NCBI GenBank assembly: GCA_963805975.1
Contig: CAWDVR010000002.1
Span: 832,001-896,000, forward strand
DNA from: an uncultured Acidobacteriota bacterium
GTDB lineage: Bacteria > Acidobacteriota > Thermoanaerobaculia > Multivoradales > SZUA-115
Length of the DNA: 64,000 bases
Direction of reading: 5' to 3'
The translations under genes and the position numbers were made by a program. The notes beneath the pieces are model-generated. The model was not told the DNA's origin and made no database searches. It was given only the letters and a program-made list of their open reading frames with translations. Below, piece after piece: positions 4,597 to 29,463 of the stretch (its first letter is position 1; the number at the start of each line of letters is the position of its first letter).

Positions 4597-4625
4597 CTGT
4601 CGCACCTCCGTCACAGGTCTGCCGC
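4597..4625 (+). promoter_or_regulatory. Pho-box-like tandem repeats upstream of the porin
   Basis: CTGTCGC-ACCT-CCGTCAC-AGGT-CTGCCGC: three heptads at 11-bp period resembling the PhoB half-site CTGTCA(T/C). Confidence 0.65.
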
Positions 4626-4733: not shown

Positions 4734-6119
4734 ATGCGCAAACCAGCAGTGTTCGTCACCTGTCTTCGGGTCGCCATCTTCTGCGCCCTGGCCCTGGCGC
4801 TCGCCGCCTCGCCGGCCGCCCGGGCGCAGGTGGCCGGGCTCTATTACCAGGAGGTCGAAAAGGAAGGCCGCATCTACGTCTTCAACACTCCCGAGCGCTA
4901 CAAGAGCTGGAGCGACTCGGGCGAGCTGGGCACGGCCATCACCCTGGTCGGCCGCGGCGCCAAGGGCGAGACCGTGGTGGCGGAGAACGAGACCGCCGCC
5001 GACCTCTACCTCTTCAAGCACAACCTGCCCGGCTACGAGCGGCCGACCCCCAAGGCGGAGGCGCCCTTCGACAGCCGGGTCTTCTACCGGGACGGCCGCA
5101 CCAACATCGTGATGAAGGCCGGCACCGTGCAGATCAGCAACCGCGTACAGGCCCGCTTCACCCAGACCGACCCCGAGGTCGGCGACGAGGTGGGCTCGTT
5201 CCGCATCCGTCGCATGAAGACGACCATCGAGGGCAACGCCTACAACAACCTGTGGCGCTTCAAGCTGCAGGCCAACTGGGTGGGCGGCGACGTGGTGACC
5301 AACGTCACCCAGGCCGCCAACGGCGCCGTGGCCCAGTCGCGCAGCCGCGGCCCGATCCTCGAGGACGCCGAGCTCCAGTATGCGAAGAACCCGCTCGCCA
5401 CCCTCTGGGTCGGCCAGGGCAAGTCGTTCTTCGGCCGCCAGGAGCTCACCTCCTCGGGCCGCCAGCAGTTCGTGGACCGCTCGATCGCCTCCGACCGCTT
5501 CGCCGGCCTGCGCCAGATCGGCGTCGGCCTCCTCGGCTCCAACCAGGGCAAGACCTTCGAGTACAACCTGGGCATCTACAACGGCAACGGCATCAACACC
5601 ACGGCCAACGACAACGACGACTACCTCTATGCGGGCCGCCTGCTGTGGACGCCCTTCGGTGAGTACCGGCTCGAGGAGTCTTCCCTCGACTACCCGACCT
5701 CCCCCAAGCTCGCCCTGGGCGCCGGCATCTACCAGAACACCACCGGCACCGGTGCCTCGGAGACCGACGTCGATCGCATCGGCGCCGAGGTCGCCTTCAA
5801 GTACCTGGGCTTCAATGCCAACGGCGAGTACTTCACCGAGACCTCGCAGCGCCTGAACGCGGCCGAGGTGGACACCGACGGCTACTACCTCCAGCTCGGC
5901 TACCTCTTCCCCAACAAGAAGTTCGAGCTGGCCGGCCGGCTCTCCGAGATCGCGCCCGACACCGCCTCGCCCCAGGATCGCACCGAGACCGGCGTCGCGC
6001 TCTCCTGGTATTTCGACCGGCACAATCACAAGCTCCAGGGTGACTATCGTCAGGTCGAGGACGACGCCACCGGCCGCACGGACAACGAGATCCGCCTGCA
6101 GCTCCAGTTGATCTTCTAG
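4734..6119 (+). CDS. Outer-membrane porin, phosphate-selective OprO/OprP-like
   Basis: GAGGAG RBS, signal peptide, FRIRRMK...GQGKSFFGRQELTSSGRQQFVDRS porin O/P-type segments, alternating beta-strand pattern, C-terminal Phe (RLQLQLIF), upstream Pho-like boxes. Confidence 0.85.
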   Translation: MRKPAVFVTCLRVAIFCALALALAASPAARAQVAGLYYQEVEKEGRIYVFNTPERYKSWSDSGELGTAITLVGRGAKGETVVAENETAADLYLFKHNLPGYERPTPKAEAPFDSRVFYRDGRTNIVMKAGTVQISNRVQARFTQTDPEVGDEVGSFRIRRMKTTIEGNAYNNLWRFKLQANWVGGDVVTNVTQAANGAVAQSRSRGPILEDAELQYAKNPLATLWVGQGKSFFGRQELTSSGRQQFVDRSIASDRFAGLRQIGVGLLGSNQGKTFEYNLGIYNGNGINTTANDNDDYLYAGRLLWTPFGEYRLEESSLDYPTSPKLALGAGIYQNTTGTGASETDVDRIGAEVAFKYLGFNANGEYFTETSQRLNAAEVDTDGYYLQLGYLFPNKKFELAGRLSEIAPDTASPQDRTETGVALSWYFDRHNHKLQGDYRQVEDDATGRTDNEIRLQLQLIF

Positions 6120-6255: not shown

Positions 6256-7170
6256 ATGGGCAATCTCCTTCTGCTCGCAGTCTGCCTGGTCGCGGGAGTC
6301 TGCCTGCACGCGCTCCGCGTCGTGCCCGCCGACGGTCACCGGCCGCTCAACCAGTACGTGATCTACGTCGCGCTGCCGGCGCTGGTGCTGCAGCACGTGC
6401 ATGCGCTCGAGGTCGACCGCAGCCTGCTCCTCCCGGCGCTGATGCCGTGGCTGGTGTTCGCCGCCGGGACGGCGCTCTTCCTGCTGCTGCTGCGCGCCGG
6501 CGCGATCTCGCGGCCGACGGCCGGGGCGCTAATCCTGACCTCGGCACTCGGCAACACCTCCTTCGTCGGCCTGCCGATGATCGAAGCGTTCTACGGCAAG
6601 GATCTGTTGGGCGTGGGGGTGATCGCGGACCAGCTCGGCACCTTCATGTGCCTCAACGTGCCGGGCATCCTCCTCGCGGCGCGCCTCGCCGCACGGAGCG
6701 AAGAGGAGGCGCGTGCCGGTGCGATCGCCAGGAAGATCCTGCTCTTTCCACCGTTCCTGGCCCTGCTGGCCGCGCTCGCCCTCCGACCCGTGGACTACCC
6801 GCCCTGGGCGGGCTCCCTCCTTGGCCGGCTCGGAGACTCGCTGACCCCGGTGGCGCTCGTCTCGGTGGGCTTGCAGCTCCACCTGGGCGAGCTGCGGAGG
6901 CGGTGGCGAGACCTCTCGCTCGGCTTGGGCTACAAGCTCGCCGTGGCGCCGGCCCTGGCGCTGCTGGTCTTCGGGCTGCTCCTCGGCGCCCGCGGCCCCG
7001 TGTTCCAGGTCACGGTCTTCGAGGCCGCCATGGCGCCCATGCTCACCGGCTCGATCGTGGCCCAGGAGCACGACCTCGACCCGCCGCTCGCCGCTTTGAT
7101 GGTGGGCGTCGGCGTGCCGATCTCGTTCCTCACGCTCTGGGGCTGGGCAAAGCTCCTCGAGAGCTTCTGA
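6256..7170 (+). CDS. AEC (auxin efflux carrier/malate permease) family transporter
   Basis: Highly hydrophobic. Motifs LNQYVIYVALPAL, LGNTSFVGLPMIEAFYG, LTPVALVSVGLQL, FEAAMAPM. Start at ATG 6256. Confidence 0.88.
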   Translation: MGNLLLLAVCLVAGVCLHALRVVPADGHRPLNQYVIYVALPALVLQHVHALEVDRSLLLPALMPWLVFAAGTALFLLLLRAGAISRPTAGALILTSALGNTSFVGLPMIEAFYGKDLLGVGVIADQLGTFMCLNVPGILLAARLAARSEEEARAGAIARKILLFPPFLALLAALALRPVDYPPWAGSLLGRLGDSLTPVALVSVGLQLHLGELRRRWRDLSLGLGYKLAVAPALALLVFGLLLGARGPVFQVTVFEAAMAPMLTGSIVAQEHDLDPPLAALMVGVGVPISFLTLWGWAKLLESF

Positions 7171-7182
7171 GGCGGTGCTCTC

Positions 7183-8518
7183 CTACCCCACCGCCCCCTC
7201 CTGGCCGCGGGTCTCGACGCGGCGCAGGTAGGCCAGGAGCTCGGTGAGCATGGCGGCGGAGACAGCTTCGCGCCGCGCCGCCTCCTGAAAGAGGAGCAGT
7301 GCGGCGGTGGCCTCGCGGTGAACGTCCTGCGCCATGAAGATGGGCACCATCTCCTCGGCGAGCCGCTTCACTTCGGCGGTGCGGTCCTGGTGAACGTAGA
7401 GGAGAGCAAGGTCGAGGCCGGCTAGCGGCTGCGTCGAGCCCAACCCTTCGCGCAGGAAGCCTTGCCGAACCTGGGGAAGAGACTTCGGCCGTCGCCCGTC
7501 GCCGAGTTCCGTATGCGACCTTTGCCCAGCAGCCACTGGCGGCGGAGCTGGGTCCAGAGGTCGGCGAACCGGTGTAGAGGGAGCCGTTGCGCTCGAGACG
7601 TTCGCCAGCCTCCAGTAGCCGTCCCGATTCGGCCAAGTACATGGTGAGGTTGTGCTGCGCACAGAGATGGAGCTTGGGATTGACGCCTGGGTCGATGTGA
7701 GACAGCGCTGCCTCGACGGACGGGATCGCGCGAGCAGTCTCGCCGGCGTTGTACAAGACCCTGGCTCTTCTCGATCGAGCACCTTCGCGAGGCGCAGAGT
7801 GGAGCCGGATCCTCTCGTAGATGCCCTTCGCCATGTCGAGGTAGCCCTCGGCATCTACGAAGCGACGCTGGTCCACTCGCAGCGCGACCCGAACAATGTC
7901 CAGCAGCTCACCTTCGACCAGCGGGTCGGCATTACCTTCGCCGTCGAAGATCTCCAAGGCAAAGGCGAGCAGCGAATCCGCACGCTTCAGGTCTCCCGTG
8001 GCTCGGAGCGCATTGGCGCGATGGCCATGGGCCCGCGCCAGGCAGGTCATGGCCCAGGCGCGGCCGAACTCGGAGTGCGAGATGCGGAGCGCCACCTCGA
8101 AGGCGCACTCGGCGAGCTCGTAGGCCTCGAAAGGGTCTGCCGTGACCTTCCGGGCGCACTCGGTGAGGAAGAGGTCCACCAAGGCCGGGGTGCGGAAGCG
8201 GGTGAGAGCGCGGGTGATCTTGGGCCGGCGCTTCTCGGGCGGGAGCTTCATCAGCTCCTGGAGCTCGGCCGCGGCCTCCGCCTCGATCTCGCCCAGGCGC
8301 TCCACCCGGCGGCCGGCGAGCATGAGGGCGTGGTGGACGAGGCCGGTGGACGAGGAGGGTCCGCGGTACCTTCCTCCGACCCCGGCCGAGAGCTCGGCAC
8401 GGCACGCGTCACAGATCTGCAGATGGTGCTCGATCAGGTCTTCGAGGACGGCCCTGGGCGGGTTCTGGCCGCCGAGCAACGCCAGGTACTCCTGGTAGCC
8501 GAGGTGCGAGCGTGCCAT
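7183..8518 (-). CDS. Zinc-finger (HxxxCxxC) plus TPR-like helical repeat protein; frameshifted in this assembly
   Basis: N-terminal HHLQICDACRAEL (zf-HC2/anti-sigma-like) followed by TPR-like helices (ARAHGHRANALRATGDLKRADSLL). The C-terminus is in another frame (LDLALLYVHQDRTAEVKRLAEEMVPIFMAQDVHREATAALLLFQEAA). Several indels near 7420-7580 must be corrected to join the frames. GGAGG RBS. Confidence 0.8.
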
Positions 8519-8706: not shown

Positions 8707-9030
8707 TCAGCCGTGCGGGTCCATCTCACAGCCTTCGTTGAGCCTGTCACCGGGAGGCGTAGCCGCGCGGCCGTTGGGGTCCATCTCCGGCCCGAAAGTG
8801 AGGAAGTCACCGGGAGGCGTCGCCGCGCTGCCGTTGGGGTCCATGTCCGGCCCATTCTTCGTGGCTGCGGGGAGCAGGCGCGCCTGAACCCACTGCACGA
8901 GATCTCCCAGCAGGCCGGAGATCACTCCTTCCGCGCCGATCCCCATCCCTCGTGGTGCCGCCAGGGCCGGGGAAGCCCCGGCAAGGAGAAGACCTCCGGC
9001 GAGAGCTACGCAAACCATAATGCGACGCAT
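8707..9030 (-). CDS. Small secreted peptide precursor with three G-x-[DE]-M-D-P-[NH]-G repeats (107 aa)
   Basis: AAAAGGAG RBS. Signal peptide MRRIMVCVALAGGLLLAGASPALA (AxA), amphipathic linker GLLGDLVQWVQARLL, then GPDMDPNG / GPEMDPNG / GCEMDPHG-stop. Confidence 0.85.
   Translation of the reverse strand: MRRIMVCVALAGGLLLAGASPALAAPRGMGIGAEGVISGLLGDLVQWVQARLLPAATKNGPDMDPNGSAATPPGDFLTFGPEMDPNGRAATPPGDRLNEGCEMDPHG
8710..8853. repeat. 60-bp tandem repeat (about 2.4 copies) encoding the 20-aa peptide units
   Basis: gccgtgcgggtccatctc (8710), gccgttggggtccatctc (8770), gccgttggggtccatgtc (8830); gtcaccgggaggcgt occurs at 8746 and 8806. Confidence 0.92.
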
Positions 9031-9252
9031 GGCACGCTCCTTTTTTTCGAGGCCGGCCCGCCGAACGGCACCATGCCGGTCGCGACCGCAACCTCTTTGA
9101 CGCAAAGATTGCCGTGCGCAGAGTGTAACCTTCAGACGTAACTTCATTCCTCCAACGGCGTCATAGGCCCGGAAATGTACTTTCTCCAGGGCTGAAGTTG
9201 CTGCCACGGGAGGGCGGGTTCCGCGAGGACGAAAAACTTGGAGTGGCCCGCT

Positions 9253-11722
9253 CTACTCGACTTCGAAGAGCCGCGCCAGGAGGAGCCGCAGGGGGAAGCG
9301 GCCGAGCGAGCCGGCGGCGACCGAGACCTCGTCGAAGCTCTCGACCGGGTCCGCCTCGATCCCTTCGCCCCAGATCGCGACCGGCACCGGGTCGGCCGCG
9401 TGCTGGCCACCTTCGGAGAGCGTGGCGTGGTCGGAGGCCACCGCCACGCGCAGCGGGCCCTTGACGTGGGCGAGCAGCCAGCCGAGGCTTTTGTCCAGTC
9501 TTTCCAGGAACTTGACCTTGAGGTCCGGCCGCTGGTCGTGGGCCGCGATGTCCGCCCCCTTGACGTGGAGCACCACCAGCTCGTGGCTCGCCAGGGCCTT
9601 GGCCGCGAGGCGGAACTTGCCCGGCAGATCGGTGTCGAGGTTGGCGGTCATGTCCGGCGCCGTCATCGCCTCGCCGCCCAGCCAGGAGGAGAGGCCCAGG
9701 AACGTCCGATCGCCGGAGACGGTGGCATGGCGCAGCGGCCGCCCGGCCACCTCCACGGCGGGCAGCGTGCGCACCAGCCCGGCGCCGCGGGTCACCACGG
9801 CGTTGGCCACCGGCCGGCCGGCGGCACGGCGCTTCTTGTTCACCGGGTGGCGGGTGAGGACCCGGCGGGCCTCTTTCTCGAACAGCGCCACCAGGCGGGC
9901 GGTGCGCACCGCGGCGGCATCCCCGGGGTCGGTGGGCCGGGGTGCGAGGGGCGGCCCCGGGGGCGCGCCGTCGCCCGGGTCGCTGCCGAGGATGGCGGGC
10001 GAGAGGCCGGCACCCTGGAAGACGATCGCCAGGCGGTGCTCGGTGGTGGGCTTGACGCGCACGGTGACCCCCTTGGCCTCGCTGCCGGGGAGCTTCAGGA
10101 GGTCGAGGGCGGCGGCGAGCCTGGCGGCCTCCGAGCGGATGCGGCCCGCGCGGCGGTCGGCGAGGCTGCCGTCGCGCGCCAGGGTCGCGAGGTTGCCGCG
10201 CAGGGCGACGTCGCCGGGCTGGAGGTCGATCCCGGTCGCCAGGGCCTCGACCGGGCCGCGCTGCATGGCGGCGGGCGACTGGCCGAAGAGCGCCAGGCTG
10301 CCGGAGGCGGTGTCGGGCACCACGCCGGGGGCCACGGGGTCGGCGAGGCCGGTCTTGCCCTCGCGCGCCAGGCGGTCGAGGTGGGGCAGGCGGGCGGCCT
10401 CGAGCGGCGTGCGCCCGCCGAGCGCCCGCGTCGGGTGGTCGGCCACGCCGTCGATCACCAGCAGCAGGGTGGGCACCCGGCGGGCGCTCCCTTCCTCCGC
10501 GCGGCCGAGCCAGGGCAGCTTCTCCTCGAGCAGGCCGGTCACCAGCCGCAGGGCGCGCGGCAGGGCCGTCTCGCCGTCCGAGGTGTCGAAGAGCGGCATG
10601 TCGTGGGCCTCGGACTGCTCGATCAACTGCGACTGCAGGAGGCGGATAGCGGTGAAGTTCTCGATGTAGCGCCCGGCCGCCCGCGGGGTGGAGCGCGAGC
10701 GGGCTAGGAAGCGCGCGCGGTGGGTCTCCTCGGAGAGCGTGGTCAGGGTGAGCAGCACCTGGTGGACGGCGCCCTCGAGGTCCCGGAACGGCACCAGCCC
10801 CGGCATCAGGTGGACGCCCTCGACCACCACGCTCATGTTCTCGACGATGGCGCGCTCGACCACCGCCCGCACCCCCACGCAGACCCGTGTCGCCTGCTCG
10901 AGAAAAGCCGGTGCGAGGCGGGAAGGGCCGCCGCGCTCGGCCTCCTCGGCGTCCTGGTTGGCGATCAGCTCGAAGCTCGAGGCGTGGAGCGCCGGCAGGA
11001 TGGCGGGCGCGAACAGCATGCGCATCACTTGGCGGATGGTGTCCGTGGCGGTGATGCGGTAGATGCGCAGCAGGGGCGCGATCGACAGCGCCAGGGTCGA
11101 CTTGCCGGTGCCGGTGGCGCCGCCCAGGTAGAGCACCAGGGGCCGCGGCAGGCGGTGGATGCGCCGCACCAGGCGGTAGCGCGCCGCGGCGCCGGCGCCC
11201 TCGTGGCGCTCGACGATCTCGCCCACCCGCCGCGCCACCTCGTCGCTTCGCGAGCCGCTGCACTCCCTCGCGCAGCAACTGACCCTGGAGCTCGCCCACC
11301 AGCCGGTAGGCGCGGTCGAGCTCGACGCCGGCGGCGTGGAGGCTCCGCGCCAGGAGGCCGCGCGAGAAGGGCTGCGGCTCGCCGTGGTAGACGACCTCGA
11401 TCTGCGGCGGCTGCGGCCAGGCGGCGGGCGACAGGCTCGCCAGGCGCTCGGCGCCGACCAGGTTCAGGAGCTGCTCTTCGATCAGATCCTTGAGCTCGGC
11501 GGTCGAGATCGCCCGGCGCTTTCCCAGCTTGCCGCGCACCGCGCGTGCCGTCGCGTAGGCGTCCTCGAAGGGCAGGCCGCGCTGCACCAGGTCGTGCGCC
11601 ACCATGCCGCGCAGAAAGGGGTGGGGATTGCCGGCGCTGTCGCGCACCACGACGCCGCCGCGCCGCACCGCTTCCTCCGCCTTCTTCGCGCCCTCGGCGT
11701 CTCCTTTGCCTTTTTTCGCCAT
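9253..11722 (-). CDS. Fusion of ATP-cone(s) + 2-phosphoglycerate kinase-like P-loop domain + ApgM-type cofactor-independent phosphoglycerate mutase; one frameshift near 11248
   Basis: ATP-cone-like PFLRGMVAHDL and PFSRGLLARSL. Kinase motifs LGGATGTGKST, TDTIRQVMR, LHASSF, VVEGVHLMPG, YIENFTAIR. Mutase motifs LLVIDGVAD, LGGRTPLEAA, HVKGADIAAH, SDHAT, HAADPVP. Kinase and mutase share one frame; removing one base near 11248 joins the N-terminal frame (about 822 aa). Confidence 0.85.
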
Positions 11723-11768
11723 GCCGCGATGCTACCCGAACCGCCGCGGCCGCCCGCGGCACGCCGGG

Positions 11769-11808
11769 TCGTCGCACGGCTGTCACAGCGCCGTCAGACG
11801 GCCGTCCG
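11769..11808 (+). promoter_or_regulatory. Pho-box-like tandem repeats between the kinase-mutase fusion and phoU
   Basis: TCGTCGC-ACGG-CTGTCAC-AGCG-CCGTCAG-ACGG-CCGTCCG: four heptads at 11-bp period. Confidence 0.7.
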
Positions 11809-11917
11809 CCGCCCTGACCGTGCCTGTGGCACACTTCGTGGCCGTGGGCTGGCGCCCGCAGGGAGACGACTGCCGGCCAGAGAACGCCAGGCCAGGAAAC
11901 CTCAGGAAAATCAAGAC

Positions 11918-12607
11918 ATGGAAAGACACCGGGACCAGGAGCTCGCCCAGATCCGCCAGCGGCTGCTCGAGATGGCAGGCATCGTGGAGGAGATGATCGG
12001 CACCTCCATGCGCTCGCTCACCGAGCGCGACGACCCGCTCGCCGAGCGCACCATCGAACGCGACCGCGAGGTGGACCGGCTGGAAAAGCTGATCGACGAG
12101 GGCTGCCTCTCGATCCTCGCGACGCAGCAGCCGATGGCCGTCGACCTGCGCTTCCTGGTGGCGGTGATGAAGATCGTCAACGATCTCGAGCGCATGGGCG
12201 ACTCGGCCAAGAACATCGCCGAGGCGGCGCTGGTGATCAACCGGGAGCCGCCGCTCAAGCCCTACATCGACCTGCCGCACATGGCCCACCTGGCGCGCGC
12301 CATGGTGCACGACAGCCTCGACTCGTTCGTGCAGAAGAACGCGGCCCTGGCGCGCGACGTGTGGCAGCGCGACGACGCCATCGACGCCCTCTACCAGCAG
12401 CTCTTCCGTGAGCTGCTGACCTACATGATCGAGGACCCGAAGAAGGCCGGCCGCTCCCTCCACCTGCTGCTCGTCGCCCTCTACCTCGAGCGCATCGCCG
12501 ACCACGCCACCAACGTCTGCGAGGACGTCATCTACTACGTCGAGGGCGAGGACATCCGCCACGAGGCGACCCGCTACCGCGACGCGGTGGCCGAGAAGAC
12601 GAACTGA
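11918..12607 (+). CDS. phoU: Phosphate signalling/transport regulator PhoU
   Basis: Two PhoU repeats: LATQQPMAVDLRFLVAVMKIVNDLERMGDSAKNIA and YLERIADHATNVCEDVIYYVEGEDIRH. ATG 11918. Confidence 0.96.
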   Translation: MERHRDQELAQIRQRLLEMAGIVEEMIGTSMRSLTERDDPLAERTIERDREVDRLEKLIDEGCLSILATQQPMAVDLRFLVAVMKIVNDLERMGDSAKNIAEAALVINREPPLKPYIDLPHMAHLARAMVHDSLDSFVQKNAALARDVWQRDDAIDALYQQLFRELLTYMIEDPKKAGRSLHLLLVALYLERIADHATNVCEDVIYYVEGEDIRHEATRYRDAVAEKTN

Positions 12608-12623
12608 GGCCCGGCCTGCCGGA

Positions 12624-12762
12624 TGGATTCCCGCTTCCGCGGGAATGACGGAGGGAGCCGGGTCGCCACGACCCCGAGTTGTCATTCCCGCGCCAGAAGG
12701 AATAGCGGAGGGAGCCGGGCCGCTGCGATCTGGGTTGTCATTCCCTCGCAAGCGGGAATCCA
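12624..12762. repeat. REP/BIME-like palindrome cluster (ATTCCC-N8-GGGAAT type)
   Basis: TGGATTCCCGCTTCCGCGGGAATGAC (12624-12649), partial GTCATTCCCGCG (12681), inverted GTCATTCCCTCGCAAGCGGGAATCCA (12737-12762). Linker CGGAGGGAGCCGGG is duplicated. Confidence 0.8.
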
Positions 12763-21037: not shown

Positions 21038-21895
<858 letters not shown>

Positions 21896-21920
21896 TCTTC
21901 CATTCTCCTCAACGGCTCTT

Positions 21921-23609
21921 CTAGACGGCGCTGCCGCGGTACTTCTTGCGCAGGTGGTTGCGGATCGACACCGCCACCAGGTTCATGGCCGTCACCACTC
22001 CGATCAGGAGCAGCGCGGTGGCGAAGACGAGCGGCGTCGTGGCCTCGATGTTCGGGCTCTGGAAGCCGACGTCGTAGATGTGGAAGCCCAGGTGCATGAA
22101 CTTGCGCTCGAGGTGCACGAAAGGGAAGTGGTGGTCGATGGGGAGCGCCGGCGCCAGCTTCACCATGCCGACGATCATCAGCGGCGCCACCTCGCCGGCG
22201 GCGCGGGCCATGGCGAGGATCATGCCGGTGAGGATGCCGGGCGCCGCGGCCGGCACCACCACTTTCCAGGTGGTCTCGAACTTGGTGGCGCCGAGCGCCA
22301 GCGAGCCCTCGCGCACGATGCGGGGCACGGCGGCGAGACCCTCCTCGGTGGCCACGATCACCACCGGCACGGTGAGGAGAGCGAGCGTCAGGCTCGCCCA
22401 CAGGATGCCGCCGGTGCCAAACGTCGGCGTGGGCAGGGCCTCGGGGTAGAACAGGCGGTCGATCGTCCCACCCATCAGGTAGACGAAGAAGCCCAGGCCG
22501 AAGACGCCGAAGACGATCGACGGCACGCCGGCCAGGTTGTTGACCGCGATGCGCACCACCCGCACCAGCGGCCCCTGCTTGGCGTACTCGCGGAGATAGA
22601 GGGCGGCGAGCACGCCGAAGGGCGTGACCACCAGCGACATGATGAGCACCATCATCACCGTGCCGAAGATCGCCGGGAAGATGCCGCCCTCGGTGTTCGA
22701 CTCGCGCGGCCGGTCGGCCACGAACTCCCAGACCCGGCCGAGGTAGAGGCGGAGCGTCGCCCAGGTGCCCATGGTGTTGGGCTGGAGCGCCCGCACCACC
22801 AGGCCCACCGGGATCTCCTTCCGCTGCCCCTCAACGCTCTCGACCACCAGCACCTCGTGGGTGAGCTCCTGGCGGCGGCCGAACAAGCGCTCCTCGAGCG
22901 CCTGGTACTGGGCCTCGCGCTCGGCCAGGCGGCCACGGATCTCCTCGCGCCGCCGCTCGAGCTCGGCCCCTTCGAGCCCCGCGAGGCCGAGGCCCCGCTC
23001 CTCGAGCCGCAGGCCCTCGATCTCACGGTTGACGTCGCCGATCTCGCCGCGCTCCAGCTTCTCGACCTCCTCGCGCAGCGCGATGGCCCGTTCCTGGAGC
23101 GGTTCGAAGGCGCGCCACACCTCGTCGGCGCCGGTGGCGGTGACGGCGTCGCCGGACTTGAGCTCCATCATGCGGCCGTAGAAGTTGCCCCATTCCAGCC
23201 GTTCGAGCATCACGGCCTCGGGCGGGTAGGAGCGCGCGGTGATCGCGGTCTCGTCCACCCACACGAAGTCGGCGCCGGTCAGGTCCCGGTTGCCGACCTT
23301 GAGGCGGATGCGGTAGAGCGGCTGCTCCGGGTCCTTCCATTCGGAGGGCGGACGGAGCTCCCGCAGGTTGATCTCGCCCAGCACCTGCTCGCCGTCCGCC
23401 ACGGTGAGCAGGGCGAGCTTCTTCTGCCAGAAGAAGCCGAGCCCCTTCGAGCCGATCAGCACCAGGAGCCCCAGGATCAGCACCAGGTTGAGCGCCAGTG
23501 CCCCGGCGCAGAGCCAGGTCATCGACAGGCCGAAGGCCTCGCGGCGGTTGCCGGCGGCGGTCCGGCGGGCGGCGGACGGCTTGGCGGAGGGCGGCGGCGT
23601 GGCGGGCAT
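21921..23609 (-). CDS. pstA: Phosphate ABC transporter permease PstA (long form)
   Basis: [59 protein letters not shown] 23609 overlaps the pstC stop (TGATG). Confidence 0.95.
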
Positions 23610-25864
23610 CAGAGTTGGGAGTAGCGCTGGCGCAGCCGCTGGCGCACCAGCTCGGCCGCGGTGTTGACGATGAAGGTGAGGGCGAAGAGCAGCAGCGCGG
23701 CGAGGAACAGCGTGCGGTAGAGCGTGCCGCCCATCGGCGCCTCGGGGATCTCGACGGCGATGTTGGCCGACAGCGTGCGGAAGCCGTTGAACGGGCTCCA
23801 GTCCATGATCGGCGTGTTGCCGGTCGCCATCAGCACGATCATGGTCTCGCCCACCGCGCGGCCGAAGCCCACCATCACCGCCGAGAAGATCCCCGGGCTC
23901 GCGGTGGGGAGCACCACCCGCGTCACCGTCTGCCAGCGGTTGGCGCCGAGCGCCAGGGACCCGGAGACCAGGTTCTTGGGCACGTTCGAGAAGGCGTCCT
24001 CGGAGATGGCGAAGATGATGGGGATCACCGCGAAACCCATGGCGAGGCCCACCACCACGGCGTTTCTCTGGTCGTAGGCCATGCCGGTGGCCTCGAGCAG
24101 CCAGCGCGGGAAATTGCCGCCGAAGAGCGCCAGCTCGACGGGCACCGAGAGCTCGACCGAGAGCCACAGCCCCAAGGCCACGACGAAGATGAAGATCAGC
24201 GCCTCGACGCCGCTCGGGAAGCGGCCGCGGAAGGCTCTCGGCAGCCGGTGCCAGAGGGCGCCGGCACCGAGGATCAGGAGCGGCAGGAGGACCGCCATCA
24301 CCAGCAGCGCGGGAAAGACCTTCTCGAGCCGCGGCGCGAGCCACAGGCCGGCGAGGAAGCCCAGCACCACGGTGGGGAGCGCCGCCATGATCTCGACCAT
24401 CGGTTTGACGAACCTCTGGTACGAGGGGTGGAGGAACTGCGAGGTGTACATCGCGCCCAGCACGCCGAGCGGGAGGGCCAGGAGCAGCGAGTAGAACGTG
24501 CCCTTGAGCGTGCCGACGAGGAGCGGCGTGAGCGACAGCTTGGGCTCGAAGTCGTCCGTGCCGCCGGTCGACTGCCAGACCTGCTCCGGCTTCGGGTAGC
24601 CCTCGTACCAGACCTTGCCGAAGAGCGTCTTCCAGGTCACCTCGGGGTGCGGGTTGTGGATGGCGAGCACGGCGAGCCTGCCGGGCGCGGCGAGGAAGGC
24701 GCCGTCGGCGCGCGGTGCCAGCACCAGGGCGCGCGCGCCGGCGAGCGGCGAGGGCCCGGTCCACAGCACGCGGCCGGCGGTCGAGTGGTAGAGGCCGAGC
24801 CCGGCGCTCGACGCGGCGAGGAACCCCTTGTTGCGCAGCGATGGCGAGATGGCCGTCACCGCGCCGGGCAGCGGCGGGAAGCTCCGTACGCGGGTCAGCG
24901 CCCAGGAGCCGTTCGCCTGCTCGACCGGGAACCACACCGAGAGGCTGCCGTCCGCCTGGCCGACGACCAGCGACTGCTCGCCGATCAGGAAGGTGAGCGC
25001 GGTGACGGCCGCCCCGCCCGCCGAGACCACCTGCGGCGGCCCCGGCTCGGCGGCGAGGTCCCACCACAGGAGAGCGCCGGTCTCCGTGCCGGCGTAGAGG
25101 TGGCGCAGGTCGCGGTCGAGCAGCAGCACCCGGGGCCGGCTCGGCAGCGGCAGGCTCGACGGCTCAAAGCTCTCGCTGACCTCGCCGGTCAGGAGGTTCT
25201 CCCGCGCCGTGCGCCGCACCAGCGCCAGCGAGCCGTCGGCCAGCACCCCGGCCGCGGCGGCTTCGGCGCCGTCCACCGAGACGGCGAAGGTGAAGGGCTC
25301 GGCTGCCTTGCCGAAAGGATCGAGGGTGAACGTGACGGGCTTGCCGACGCCGGCCTCGATGCGGCGCTGGTCGCCCTCGAAGGAGAGGTCCCACGAGAGC
25401 GGAGCGATGATCGCCCGGCCATCGGTGGTCGCGCCGCCGAGCCAGGAAGCGTCGCCGGCCTGGGCCACGGCCACCAACCGGGCCGGCGGAGCGGTCACGC
25501 CCTCGCCGGCCGGCACCGCCGGCAGCAGCGGATGGCTTGCCACCGGCGCGCCGTTCGTGGCGGAGAGCACCCGGACCTCGCCGTCGAGCGTGAGGCCGGC
25601 GACCAGCGTGCGGTACTCGTCGGTCGCGAGGGTGGCGAGGTCGGTGCCCGAGATCGCCACCTCGCCGGCGATCCCCACGCTCGCCGCCCGGGTCAGCGGC
25701 CAGACCTCGACCAGGATGAAGACCAGGATTCCGAGGATGCTGGCGATGATCCCCAGGCCACCGGCGGTGACGAACCAGCGGGCGAGGCGGTCCGCCCAGA
25801 AGCGGCGGGGCGCCGTGCGGCCGGCGGATCGGCGGGGAGCACCGTGTGATTGCGCGGGGGTCAT
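23609..25864 (-). CDS. pstC: Phosphate ABC transporter permease PstC (long form with large extracytoplasmic domain)
   Basis: VWYEGY...WQSTGGTDDFEPKLSLTPL, KPMVEIMAALPTVVLGF, GSLALGANRWQT, RAVGETMIVLMATGNTP. Confidence 0.95.
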   Translation of the reverse strand: MTPAQSHGAPRRSAGRTAPRRFWADRLARWFVTAGGLGIIASILGILVFILVEVWPLTRAASVGIAGEVAISGTDLATLATDEYRTLVAGLTLDGEVRVLSATNGAPVASHPLLPAVPAGEGVTAPPARLVAVAQAGDASWLGGATTDGRAIIAPLSWDLSFEGDQRRIEAGVGKPVTFTLDPFGKAAEPFTFAVSVDGAEAAAAGVLADGSLALVRRTARENLLTGEVSESFEPSSLPLPSRPRVLLLDRDLRHLYAGTETGALLWWDLAAEPGPPQVVSAGGAAVTALTFLIGEQSLVVGQADGSLSVWFPVEQANGSWALTRVRSFPPLPGAVTAISPSLRNKGFLAASSAGLGLYHSTAGRVLWTGPSPLAGARALVLAPRADGAFLAAPGRLAVLAIHNPHPEVTWKTLFGKVWYEGYPKPEQVWQSTGGTDDFEPKLSLTPLLVGTLKGTFYSLLLALPLGVLGAMYTSQFLHPSYQRFVKPMVEIMAALPTVVLGFLAGLWLAPRLEKVFPALLVMAVLLPLLILGAGALWHRLPRAFRGRFPSGVEALIFIFVVALGLWLSVELSVPVELALFGGNFPRWLLEATGMAYDQRNAVVVGLAMGFAVIPIIFAISEDAFSNVPKNLVSGSLALGANRWQTVTRVVLPTASPGIFSAVMVGFGRAVGETMIVLMATGNTPIMDWSPFNGFRTLSANIAVEIPEAPMGGTLYRTLFLAALLLFALTFIVNTAAELVRQRLRQRYSQL

Positions 25865-25880
25865 GTCTCGATGCCTGGCC

Positions 25881-25938
25881 TGTCACCCCGAGCGGAGCGG
25901 ATCGCTCCGCCCGGATCCCTCGCTGCGCTCGGGATGAC
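25881..25938. repeat. REP-like inverted pair between pstS and pstC
   Basis: TGTCACCCCGAGCGGAGCG...GATCCCTCGCTGCGCTCGGGATGAC forms a long hairpin; same family as 61209-61373. Confidence 0.7.
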
Positions 25939-25955
25939 GATACCGGGTAGCAGGC

Positions 25956-26927
25956 TCAGTTCAGCTTGGCGAGCTCGCCGTCACAGGCCGGCCCGGTCAG
26001 CGGGAAGTAGCCGTCCTTGACCACCACCTGCTGCCCCTCCTTGCTGCAGATGAACTTCACGAACTCGCGCATCAGCGGGTCGGCGGGCTTGTTGGGCGCC
26101 TTGTTGACGTAGACGTAGAGGAAGCGGGCGAGCGGATAGTTGCCGGCGAGCACTTCGTGCTGGCTCGCCTCGTAGGCCGTGGCGCCGCTCTTGGCGGCGA
26201 GCGGCACGGCGCGCACTCCGGACGTCTTGTAGCCGATGCCGCTGTAGCCGATGCCGTAGATGTCCTCGGTGACGCCCTGCACCACGGACGCCGAGCCGGG
26301 CTGCTCCTTGACGGTGTCCTTGTAGTCGCCGCCGCAGAGCGCCTTTTCCTTGAAGAAGCCGTAGGTGCCGGAGGCCGAGTTGCGGCCGTAGAGGCTGATC
26401 GGCCGCGACGCCCAGCCGGCGTCCTTCAAGGTGGCCGCACCCCAGTTGGCGGCGCCGCTGCCGCCGCAGCGCCGGGTCTTCGAGAAGATGCCGTCCACCT
26501 GCGCCAGCGTGAGCTGCTGCACCGGGTTGTCCTTGTTGACGTAGACCGCCAGCGCGTCGAGCGCGACCTTGACCACGGTCGGCTTGTAGCCGTACTTCTT
26601 CTCGAAGTCGTCGATCTCGTTGGCGCGCATCTCGCGGCTCATGGGGCCGAGCTGCGCGGTGCCGGCGATCAGTGCCGGGGGTGCGGTGGAAGAGCCCTTG
26701 CCCTCGATCTGGATGCGTACGTTGGGGTACTGCTTCTGGAACCCTTCGGCCCACAGCGTCATCAGGTTGTTGAGGGTGTCGGAGCCGATCGAGTTCAAAT
26801 TGCCCGAGATGCCGCTGGTCTTGGCGTAGGGCTTCAACGCCGCGTCGATCTCGATCTGCCCTTCCGCGGCGCCCACCGCCAGGAACAGGCCGCACGCACA
26901 CAGGACCGCCGTCAAGCTATGCCTCAT
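25956..26927 (-). CDS. pstS: Phosphate ABC transporter substrate-binding protein PstS
   Basis: Signal peptide, [64 protein letters not shown]. Confidence 0.97.
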
Positions 26928-27059: not shown

Positions 27060-27077
27060 GTGACAGCGGCGTGACAG
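27060..27077 (-). promoter_or_regulatory. Pho box upstream of pstS
   Basis: Minus strand CTGTCAC-GCCG-CTGTCAC, a near-consensus PhoB box; an extra CTGTCAC half-site lies at 27025-27031. Confidence 0.8.
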
Positions 27078-27090
27078 CGGGCGCCGGGCG

Positions 27091-27555
27091 CTACCCGCGC
27101 AGCCGGTGCCGCACTCGCCCCAGGAAGCGGTTCACGGGGTGGGAGCGCGGCAGGAAGGAGAGCACCGGGCGGCTCCGCAGGCCGAGCTCTTTCAACAGCT
27201 TGCGCAGCCGCTTGTCCTTGGGATCCACGGCCAGCCCTTCGCGCACGGCGCGCACGGCAGCGCCGCGGTTGTCGAACAAGAGGTAGGTGCGGGCCAAGTT
27301 GTAGTAGTTCTCGCCGCGGTAGAACTCGACCTTCACGGCGTGGCGGCAGAGCTCCAGGCCCTCGCGCTTGCGCCCCTCGAAGCGCGCCATGCCGTAGCCG
27401 AAGTAGGAGTAGAAGACCCCCGGCAGCTCCTCGCGGAAGGTGTCGTTCCGGCTCACCTGGGCGAGACCCGCGAGGCCCTGCTGCCATTCGCCGCGGCGGC
27501 AGGCCTCCACTCCACGCTTGACCGTGTCGAGAACCTCCTGCCGGCTGCTCGCCAT
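27091..27555 (-). CDS. Small TPR-containing protein
   Basis: ATG 27555. YSYFGYGMA...[28 protein letters not shown]...[13 protein letters not shown] pattern; basic C-tail [20 protein letters not shown]. Confidence 0.8.
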
Positions 27556-27651
27556 GAGTCGATAGCCTAATGCACATAGAAACACCGCACAAACGCCGGC
27601 CGGGTGCGGAGCTTTCCGCTCGTGGTACCCTGCCCGAAACGTCTCCACAGC

Positions 27652-29463
27652 ATGGCTGACTCGAACCCTCTGACCACCTCCGTCCCCGTCGGCGCGGACA
27701 AGGTCCAGCAGCTCCTCGAGCTGGGCAGCTCCTTCGCCGACCACGGCCAGTGGCGCGAAGCCGCCGAGATGCTGGTCCTCGCCCTGCGCCTGAAGCCGGA
27801 CTGCGCCGACGCCCGCGAGCAGCTCGCCCGCGTGCGCCGCGCCCAGCGCCAGGGGCAGTTGCCCGCCGAGGGGGCGACGCTGCGCGAAGCCGCCGGGGAG
27901 GAGTTCCGGCGGCGCGCTCTCGACGGTTCCCACTTCCTGGGCCTCGCCCGGCTCTACGAGCAGAAGGGCGAGATCCGCCAGGCGATCGAGTGCCTGGAGA
28001 TCGCCAAGGCCAAGGCGCCTTCCAACCCGGCGCCCCACAAGCTGCACGGCAAGCTGCTGCTGCAGCGCGGAAACGCCCAGGCCGCCGCCCGCGAGCTCGC
28101 CCGCGCCGCGCACCTCGACCCCTTCGACCGCGAGACCGAGGAGACCCTGGGGCTCGCCGAGCACCAGCAACGGCGCTTCGCGCCGGCGGCGGCGGCCACC
28201 GCCCGCGCCTTCCTGCTGGTGGGCGACCTCCAGTCCGTGGACGCCGTCCGGCTGCGGCGCCGGTTGATGACGCTCCGGCGCATCCTCGGCTGGGGAAATC
28301 AGGAGACCTCGCGGCTCTTCGATCAGGCCCGCGAGCACCTGCAGACGGCGCGCGACCGCCTGGAGTGGCGGCGCGAGCGCTTCCCCGAGGAGGAGGGGCT
28401 GCCGCACGGCGGCGCCTGGTTCGGCGCCACGCCGGCCCACGCGCGCCCCGGCCTGATCGCGCTCGCCGCCCGGCTACGCCGGCTGACGGCGCTCGCCAGC
28501 CTCGCCGACGGCGAGCTCTTCCGCTTGACGGCGGCGGTGCAGGAGGAGATGCACGCGGCGGGCAGCCTGGTCTTCGCCCAGCGCGGCGACGGGCGCGATC
28601 TCTACCTGGTCGAGGAAGGCATGATCCGCCTCGAGCGGACCAGCGGCTACGGCACCTTCCCGCTCTCGACCGTCGCCCCCGGCGAGCTGGCGGGAGAAGC
28701 CTCCTCGCTGCTGCGCCAGCCCCGCGGCACGGACGCCGTGGCGCTACGGCCCTCGCGCCTGCTGCGCATCGACTCCGCGACGCTCGAGCGCCTGAGCCGC
28801 GAGAGCCCCGAGCTCTCGCAGCAGCTCCTGTGGTGCTTGTGGCACTCGCTCGCCGGCAAGCTCCGCGCCGCCAACGAGCAACTGCGCGAGATCTTCGCCG
28901 CCTCCGCCATGCCGCACGACGCGCTCGCCGCCCGGCTCCAACCGGCGACCGCCGGCGAGCGCGTCCACCTGGCGTCGCAGGACAAGGTGCGCCTGTTCCG
29001 CGAGCAGGGCCTGTCGCAGCGCGAGCTCGCGACCTTGGCCACCTTCTCGCGCGAGAAGCGCTTCGCCGCCGGCTCCTACCTGTTCCGTGAGGGCGACCCC
29101 GGCGACGAGCTCTACGCCGTGGTCGAAGGCCGGGTGCTGATCAGCAAGTACATCCCCGGGGGCGGCGACGAAGCCCTGGCGATCCTGCGCCGCGGCGAGT
29201 TCTTCGGGGAGATGGCCTTGATCGACGGCCAGCCACGCTCCGCCGACGCCCGCGCCGAAGGCGGCGCCGCCACCGTCCTCGCCCTCGACCAGGCCACGCT
29301 CCGCGACCTCCTGGCCCTGGACCCCGCGGCCTCGGCCGACTTCCTCCGCCTCCTCTGCCGCCTCCTAGCCCGCCGCTTGACCGAGGCGGAGGAGAAAGTG
29401 CTGGGGTGGCGGATGCTGGGGGGCGGGGCAACCGAGCAGGGCGGCGAGGACCAGCCGACCTGA
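27652..29463 (+). CDS. TPR protein with two C-terminal cyclic-nucleotide-binding domains
   Basis: N-terminal TPRs. CNB1: VFAQRGDGRDLYLVEEG...GELAGEASSLLRQPRGTDA. CNB2: LFREGDPGDELYAVVEG...GEFFGEMALIDGQPRSADARA. No HTH seen. Confidence 0.88.
   Translation: MADSNPLTTSVPVGADKVQQLLELGSSFADHGQWREAAEMLVLALRLKPDCADAREQLARVRRAQRQGQLPAEGATLREAAGEEFRRRALDGSHFLGLARLYEQKGEIRQAIECLEIAKAKAPSNPAPHKLHGKLLLQRGNAQAAARELARAAHLDPFDRETEETLGLAEHQQRRFAPAAAATARAFLLVGDLQSVDAVRLRRRLMTLRRILGWGNQETSRLFDQAREHLQTARDRLEWRRERFPEEEGLPHGGAWFGATPAHARPGLIALAARLRRLTALASLADGELFRLTAAVQEEMHAAGSLVFAQRGDGRDLYLVEEGMIRLERTSGYGTFPLSTVAPGELAGEASSLLRQPRGTDAVALRPSRLLRIDSATLERLSRESPELSQQLLWCLWHSLAGKLRAANEQLREIFAASAMPHDALAARLQPATAGERVHLASQDKVRLFREQGLSQRELATLATFSREKRFAAGSYLFREGDPGDELYAVVEGRVLISKYIPGGGDEALAILRRGEFFGEMALIDGQPRSADARAEGGAATVLALDQATLRDLLALDPAASADFLRLLCRLLARRLTEAEEKVLGWRMLGGGATEQGGEDQPT

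Follow-up and report, generated by a model that had tools for sequence, protein, structure and literature searches.

What does a gene do that joins a 2-phosphoglycerate kinase-like domain to a phosphoglycerate mutase-like domain, and that lies back-to-back with phoU? The question arises from a 64,000-nucleotide stretch (hereafter the window) of contig CAWDVR010000002.1 (positions 832,001 to 896,000; assembly GCA_963805975.1) from an uncultured soil Acidobacteriota bacterium, whose genome we call G000. The gene encodes two ATP-cone-like repeats, a P-loop kinase of the 2-phosphoglycerate kinase (2-PGK) family, and an ApgM-fold domain of the AlkP superfamily with Thr as nucleophile. We tentatively propose that the fusion runs an ATP-gated make-and-break (kinase/phosphatase) cycle on 2,3-bisphosphoglycerate (2,3-BPG), a reading to which we give somewhat less than even chances. 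The gene and its parts are as follows.

9253..11722, minus strand: fusion gene (two ATP-cones, 2-PGK-type kinase, Thr-type ApgM-fold domain), ATG at 11722 and stop ending at 9253; profile matches and an intact homolog
11453..11656, minus strand: first ATP-cone-like repeat, approximate limits; sequence repeat and profile matches
11150..11407, minus strand: second ATP-cone-like repeat, approximate limits, lying across a frameshift; sequence repeat and profile matches
10504..11145, minus strand: 2-PGK-family P-loop kinase domain of the NMP-kinase fold, Walker A at 11095-11124; profiles, fold match and motifs
9256..10476, minus strand: domain of the ApgM fold (AlkP superfamily) in which the six predicted metal ligands and the cap arginines are all present, codon of the Thr nucleophile at 10309-10311; profiles, alignment and model
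11247..11252, minus strand: one-base frameshift, probable assembly error; frame change, contigs of relatives and an intact gene from the same genus

The fusion is real. The C-terminal frame (9256-11259) carries the kinase and mutase domains with zero stops between them, so the fusion is independent of the frameshift, as a preliminary description of this DNA had held; the architecture proposed there (two ATP-cone-like segments, a 2-PGK-like kinase and a complete AlkP-superfamily mutase domain) was recovered by profile and Foldseek matches. With the extra base discounted, the protein is ~822 aa long. The frameshift is most likely an assembly error, because a genome of the same genus (G223) holds an intact, open 825-aa homolog and because the contigs of relatives lack the extra base: five close-relative contigs (sequencing runs X1, X2 and X3) have one base fewer at 11247-11250. 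The fusion is in one frame in all five family genomes tested, and is longer than 780 aa in 113 of 120 fusion homologs among the matches listed. Programmed frameshifting is unneeded, as the relatives hold one open frame. Four of the 67 genes tested in G000, the fusion gene included, are frameshifted. A search for reads of the window's own strain found none (the best run held 37% of words), so the frameshift is not directly disproved and may instead be a very recent real mutation; no informative raw RNA reads covering the window were found. Elsewhere in the window, a TPR-rich gene (7130-8518) apparently contains several frameshifts, consistent with indel errors in the assembly.

A strong 2-PGK match (E <1e-50) was present in 31 of 48 genomes of the same order, always in a frame of 746-904 aa, and in none of 152 genomes from other orders of the class (the unpublished G004 among them). 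As 24 of the 31 carriers come from one genus, these counts are not independent. The 79 homologous loci, taken from the best 80 of 245 loci, are labelled Thermoanaerobaculia or Candidatus Multivoradales, save three with labels of other phyla; L001 among them and G223 are apparently the same genome. The ESM Atlas contains a 258-member cluster with an automatic name. A second, divergent type of fusion occurs in L141, L159 and L160, and a split version, with the kinase and the Thr-type ApgM encoded by adjacent genes, in L095-L097, where close mutase homologs are labelled SAR324; the range beyond Acidobacteriota is based on word-based searches. The split pair sits after gcvH, a phosphonate monoester hydrolase homolog (2w8s, E 1.9e-138) and moaE. 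At L101, a kinase has no mutase behind it. A plasmid search returned one weak Deinococcus match. According to PMC1274311, COG2074 and COG3635 are common to Thermus, Deinococcus and archaea. In a quick IQ-TREE analysis of 106 rows (12 of 114 fusion rows, with fusion fragments and most near-identical SAR324-type rows excluded), the kinase-linked ApgM domains form one clade (SH-aLRT 93) nested within Thr-type ApgMs. By sequence comparison, the kinase and the Thr-ApgM are a co-inherited two-part module.

The substrate of the kinase is, as the best inference from homology, 2-phosphoglycerate (2-PG). The protein has the 2-PGK motif set, namely an N-terminal ATP-cone-like segment, Walker A, TD..R..MR, EGVH and the family-specific polar residues. 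The C-terminal frame matches NCBIfam PRK12337 (E 6.7e-58) and PRK04220 (E 4.7e-53), both below cut-off, and the intact homolog P0002 also falls short of the 2-PGK equivalog cut-offs NF003259/NF008994 (247 vs 343 and 276 vs 603). K207, T226, D227, R230, R234, S248, Q279, R293, E297, G305, H307, H337, R344, R350 and Y355 are invariant both in the fusion kinases (24 compared) and in kinases encoded beside a cyclic 2,3-diphosphoglycerate (cDPG) synthetase (22 compared); the neighbours were identified as synthetases by their match to 8ORK/8ORU/9SXB (E ~1e-85). These shared residues speak for 2-PG, because a kinase beside cDPG synthetase must supply it with 2,3-BPG. In an 88-row tree (FastTree support 95, midpoint root), the fusion kinases and those linked to Thr-ApgM group apart from the synthetase-linked kinases. 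The label "archaeal-type" given to the kinase in the preliminary description suits the families only; the kinase itself belongs to a bacterial clade of its own, which goes together with the Thr-ApgM.

A different phosphorylated small molecule as the substrate of the pair, or polyphosphate as the donor, with the likeness to phosphoglycerate enzymes being ancestral, strikes us as improbable. The kinase and mutase halves do both score below curated cut-offs, both families have diverged members (mevalonate-3-phosphate 5-kinase, PhpG and rice LPA1, the last affecting phytate according to PMC6417671), and ppk1, ppk2 and CHAD genes often lie nearby (15, 9 and 10 of 79 loci). Yet the polar active-site residues of the kinase equal those of the synthetase-linked kinases, the window's kinase piece scores 180 and 196 bits on the 2-PGK models vs 33 on the mevalonate-phosphate model, and the cap arginines of the second domain are unchanged.

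Pfam PF03477 (ATP-cone) matches the window piece weakly (20.5 vs a cut-off of 25.8 bits, E 7e-4), PRK04220 matches two stretches of the N-terminal piece that correspond to the two cone-like repeats, and Foldseek of the N-terminal part gave weak matches to ATP-cone ribonucleotide reductases. Precomputed PF03477 matches are present on ~110 of 120 fusion homologs among the matches listed. In 16 loci of a clade found beside nqr and valS genes (L047, L052, L054 and 13 others) the first cone is unmatched, with matches beginning at residue 90-108, and this clade appears to lack it. ATP-cones are allosteric nucleotide-binding domains.

The second domain is above cut-off for Pfam PF10143 and PF01676 and narrowly misses TIGR00306 (313.9 vs 320 bits), which the split-pair homolog in L095 clears (338); on PRK04024 it scores 325 vs 489. 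The six metal ligands and seven cap Arg/Lys residues are conserved at 99-100% across 114 rows. The predicted model of the domain (pLDDT 96.8) has 3idd as its top match (Z 35.2, rmsd 6.4, 360 aligned; next Z 20.1), and shows the AlkP core with six metal ligands and the ApgM cap that are expected of an ApgM.

The loop around the nucleophile differs from that of solved ApgM structures. Since AGSDTAHL of Pyrococcus horikoshii ApgM (2zkt) aligns without gaps to VPDTASGSL of P0002, whose loop the window shares, Thr stands in place of Ser, as had been read from the PDTA motif beforehand. A D-T-A loop without His at +4 is found in 114 of 114 rows, where 2zkt has G-S-D-T-A-H; the G-S-D-x-x-H loop of solved ApgM structures is absent from the fusion domain, and the kinase-linked ApgMs have lost the usual Gly (-1) and His (+4). 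The Thr is in itself no special feature: among 58 close stand-alone ApgMs whose nucleophile follows a Gly, 48 have it too, and one Thr-type stand-alone ApgM, P0284, clears the PRK04024 equivalog cut-off (494.9 vs 489). We therefore discarded the idea that Thr marks a new activity. Loss of the acid at +1 is only suggestive of altered chemistry, counter-examples being present. A sister clade contains 13 stand-alone Thr-ApgMs with T-H/Q-x-G loops (P0312, P0314, P0326, P0327, P0331, P0336 and others).

Whether the fused domain is a phosphatase or a mutase is addressed by what else the carriers encode. All 31 keep a separate mutase, a second ApgM in 29 and GpmI in two; G000 likewise has a housekeeping mutase, an ApgM on contig C4 that scores above the PRK04135 cut-off. 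GpmA, which uses 2,3-BPG as cofactor, was found in none of the 31 carriers and in two of 17 non-carriers, which rules out a supply of 2,3-BPG for priming GpmA. A cDPG synthetase had been reported absent from the window; none was found there or in G000 (96% complete) with an 18-sequence hidden Markov model run on all frames of at least 60 aa, and none in 121 genomes of the order with one query, which recovers 23 of 23 known loci locally. A cDPG route was rejected on this ground. Among 80 kinase loci (the best 80 of 417, several of them short contigs), 23 have a synthetase, 10 have a Thr-ApgM and none has both. No known consumer of 2,3-BPG was thus found in the carriers, and no extra mutase is needed, which makes the fused domain the simplest candidate for removing 2,3-BPG. 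Because the carriers keep a separate mutase, are without GpmA and yielded no cDPG synthetase, the fused domain is more plausibly a 2,3-BPG phosphatase than a channelling mutase, though we put the phosphatase at a little under one chance in two.

The alternative is a channelled synthase, in which the ApgM domain is a mutase that passes 2-PG to the kinase, 2,3-BPG is made from 3-phosphoglycerate as a store or signal, and another enzyme removes it. We regard it as rather unlikely. The fold and all mutase residues are intact, a Thr-type relative (P0284) scores above a mutase equivalog cut-off, and a Ser-type ApgM lies nearby in four synthetase loci. It predicts the same genomic pattern as the phosphatase, apart from the missing sink, and for this reason keeps the standing we give it. 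It also draws support from L134 (4974-7942), a single case where a stand-alone two-cone 2-PGK abuts a GpmI-type mutase. That GpmI-like protein, however, has changes of its own in the nucleophile loop (S62 to T and E63 to A vs 1ejj), and a possible explanation is convergent recruitment of a second mutase family. Against channelling, the fused domain is the sole mutase in none of the 31 carriers, the separate mutase already provides 2-PG, and neither a synthetase nor GpmA was found to use the product. The full-length model (pTM 0.47, from a shallow alignment of 22 sequences) lends no support to a fixed channel and is uninformative on domain contacts. The preliminary description had offered a channelled enzyme and a kinase/phosphatase pair side by side; the comparative data favour the pair and make channelling the weaker half.

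Several points count against a kinase/phosphatase cycle on 2,3-BPG. The kinase is below both 2-PGK equivalog cut-offs, in a family that includes mevalonate-3-phosphate 5-kinase. The loop changes are not diagnostic: Asp (+1) is kept in two of three rows of the second fusion type, the housekeeping ApgM of G000 has Gly at +1, and seven stand-alone ApgMs read G-T-D with Thr at +4. The residues retained for phosphatase chemistry are the same ones that a mutase requires, and a channelled mutase would likewise coexist with a housekeeping mutase. In 16 of 79 loci a gene just upstream encodes a SixA-like histidine phosphatase, and the hydrolase might be this protein rather than the fused domain. As to the phosphate connection, 45 of 79 loci lack a strict phosphate marker, including several short contigs and the 16-locus clade, which sits behind an nqr operon and beside valS with no phosphate gene nearby; carriers are kin, and the linkage may be one ancestral cluster reshuffled. 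Finally, the Pho box next to the fusion (below) lies 47-86 bases upstream of it yet is directed at phoU, and a box with at most two mismatches within 400 bp upstream is found in only three of 67 loci, all with a divergent phoU.

In the make-and-break cycle that we tentatively prefer, the kinase would convert 2-PG and ATP to 2,3-BPG, and the ApgM-fold domain would likely hydrolyse 2,3-BPG via a phospho-threonine, freeing phosphate. The ATP-cones would likely set the kinase/phosphatase direction by energy status. Alongside Pst uptake and the storage of polyphosphate, 2,3-BPG would then serve as a phosphate buffer or signal that turns over fast.

Other 2-PGKs also adjoin hydrolases, a point in favour of the cycle. 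The order metallophosphoesterase, cDPG synthetase, 2-PGK occurs in bacterial loci (L138, L142, L146, L148, L156, L165-L167 and others), and a metallophosphoesterase is present in 11 of the 23 synthetase loci, where it is a candidate cDPG hydrolase. These loci suggest cDPG synthesis in bacteria, whereas cDPG is called exclusive to methanogens in the cDPG literature cited below. A Ppx/GppA gene lies immediately upstream of a stand-alone two-cone 2-PGK in six loci (L121, L125, L126, L128, L129 and L135), all without ApgM or synthetase. G000 also encodes a third ApgM-like protein (L082, G000:C5:179683) with altered cap residues, between genes that look by eye like an ATP-grasp and a thioesterase gene, probably a biosynthetic cluster.

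The physiological side of the proposal comes from the gene neighbourhood. The window contains the following phosphate genes and control elements.

11918..12607, plus strand: phoU, divergent neighbour of the fusion; TIGR02135 above cut-off
4734..6119, plus strand: phosphate-selective porin O/P, its Pho-like box at 4597-4614, in the same phosphate region; Pfam match and box scan
21038..26927, minus strand: pstSCAB operon with a perfect two-heptad box at 27060-27077, in the same phosphate region; profile matches and box scan
11769..11808, plus strand: Pho-box-like array of four 11-bp units, best pair 11780-11797, directed at phoU; heptad scan
11729..11734, minus strand: candidate -10 element TAGCAT, six bases before the ATG; sequence, kept in L001, L048 and L068

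Genes for phoU, pst, porin, ppk1, ppk2, CHAD or Na/Pi proteins lie within 8 kb in 34 of 79 loci, against a baseline of about 1.7% of G000 (this one genome only) lying that near phosphate genes; CHAD is a polyphosphate-binding domain. Phosphate markers occur in 28 of 58 loci with at least 4 kb upstream, and in 28 of 43 when the nqr/valS clade is left out. The neighbours vary by clade (76 of 79 loci and the window were compared): phoU in divergent orientation, phoBR likewise divergent and accompanied by pst, pst either upstream or downstream, ppk1-sixA-CHAD-ppk2, or Na/Pi. The link to phosphate genes suggested beforehand thus recurs in several arrangements. The fear that the fusion is common and unlinked to pho genes is justified by half, in that it is common in one order, yet linked except in the 16-locus nqr/valS clade. 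As judged from these relatives, the module is conserved, assembled from families already known, and linked with phosphate genes.

A central-carbon shunt or ATP-spending cycle without a role in phosphate control, the neighbourhood being merely inherited, and/or a true recent pseudogene in this copy, appears very improbable. Such a reading would account for the clade beside nqr and valS, for a further 10 tree rows that have 4 kb or more upstream yet no marker, and for a fusion without a Pho box of its own, and would take the frameshift at face value. It is opposed by at least five different phosphate-gene arrangements in separate clades, by the divergent second fusion type L159, which also adjoins pst and phoU, and by an excess of synonymous over non-synonymous codon changes vs G223 in both pieces either side of the frameshift (36:17 and 137:90).

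The gap between the fusion and phoU is 195 bp (11723-11917), shared by the two divergent genes as first described. The heptad consensus of the E. coli Pho box is CTGTCAY. Four GTC cores with an exact 11-bp period show 3, 0, 2 and 3 mismatches to this E. coli consensus, so two of the four Pho-like heptads claimed for this region are good and two are degenerate; the Pho-like box itself is real. A two-heptad pattern with at most two mismatches occurs three times in the window, upstream of porin, phoU and pstS, vs 0.70 expected, and six of 100 shuffles reach three. The pstS box is one of three sites in the genome with at most one mismatch. The site between the fusion and phoU is retained in close relatives; the row for L179, which is no phoU-divergent locus, was set aside in this comparison. 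Given its orientation and the count of upstream boxes above (67 of 79 loci with enough upstream DNA, scanned with the E. coli consensus only), the box lacks support as the fusion's own control site, a role first read from it. Its most likely owner is phoU, although the fusion may share the control. A sigma-70 scan upstream of the fusion found no full promoter, and the position of the candidate -10 element suggests a leaderless transcript.

Further features lie nearby. A protein with TPR and double cNMP-binding domains is encoded near pstS (27580-29460), and its homologs lie upstream of the fusion in eight of 79 loci, five of them without phosphate markers. A 154-aa open reading frame (ORF) on the minus strand (27060-27555) is just upstream of the pstS Pho box. 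An inverted-repeat-like element is present at 12608-12760 and 8860-8707, with two TTGTCATTCCC units between phoU and an SLC13 permease. A 166-aa ORF (8707-9207) has terminal repeated GPxMDPxG units and no Pfam match.

In design, the fusion resembles eukaryotic 6-phosphofructo-2-kinase/fructose-2,6-bisphosphatase, which couples a kinase of the NMP-kinase fold to a phosphoglycerate-mutase-family domain and makes and removes a bisphosphate. The likeness is an analogy, with the phosphatase activity of the fusion conjectural: the second domains are non-homologous (a histidine phosphatase there, an AlkP metalloenzyme here) and the substrate is another. ApgM (TIGR00306, PF10143; PDB 2zkt, 3idd and 3kd8) agrees in the whole predicted fold, the metal ligands and the cap arginines, within the AlkP superfamily treated in PMC3249071. 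The fusion differs from it in the loop (D-T-A-x-G-S/T, where ApgM has G-S/T-D-x-x-H), in being tied to a kinase and in having a separate mutase at its side in each of the 31 carriers checked.

The closest described system is the cDPG pathway of Methanothermus fervidus (NF003259/NF008994; PMC10690619 and PMC1224877). The 2-PGK and synthetase of the pathway are described in PMC10690619 and bioRxiv 10.1101/2025.02.21.639460, and cDPG is discussed as a carbon and phosphate store in PMC1224877. The M. fervidus 2-PGK joins an ATP-cone to a P-loop kinase, where the fusion has ATP-cone-like repeats and a P-loop kinase, and the polar active-site residues of the fusion are as in synthetase-linked homologs. 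The fusion differs in having two cone-like repeats and an ApgM-fold domain, in its separate clade and in its scores below both cut-offs; it occurs in bacteria of soil or marine origin, with pho and polyphosphate genes nearby and no synthetase found. Rice OsLpa1 is a 2-PGK-like P-loop protein with a genetic tie to phosphorus storage, for which 2,3-BPG is mentioned as a possible effector; it is a plant protein, compared here by description, and the excerpt available of PMC6417671 mentions no ApgM domain or ATP-cone. In titles and abstract openings, with most subscription journals outside the search, we found no description of the fusion or of a phosphate-linked bacterial 2-PGK.

The phosphate-gene company of the relatives likely points to an undescribed small-molecule branch of bacterial phosphate housekeeping. 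A bolder version, which we consider doubtful, is that the fusion is an ATP-cone-gated enzyme, coupled to PhoU/Pst and to polyphosphate enzymes, that makes and destroys 2,3-BPG as a second messenger reporting on phosphate and energy supply, as a counterpart of 6-phosphofructo-2-kinase/fructose-2,6-bisphosphatase. The same kinase family would have recruited an opposing hydrolase more than once (Thr-ApgM, the Thr-type GpmI in L134, a metallophosphoesterase and a Ppx-like protein), and the fusion would be a bacterial model for the reaction of plant LPA1.

The 2-PGK reaction has been described in thermophilic methanogens, as part of their cDPG pathway; in the present case the kinase occurs in a bacterial order, fused to a dedicated AlkP enzyme and frequently surrounded by phosphate genes, with no synthetase found. 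If the module does cycle 2,3-BPG, bacteria would possess, in addition to Pi and polyphosphate, a third pool or signal for phosphate, and many proteins automatically annotated as phosphoglycerate mutase would carry the wrong name. The result would also bear on the role of 2-PGK homologs without a synthetase, plant LPA1 included.

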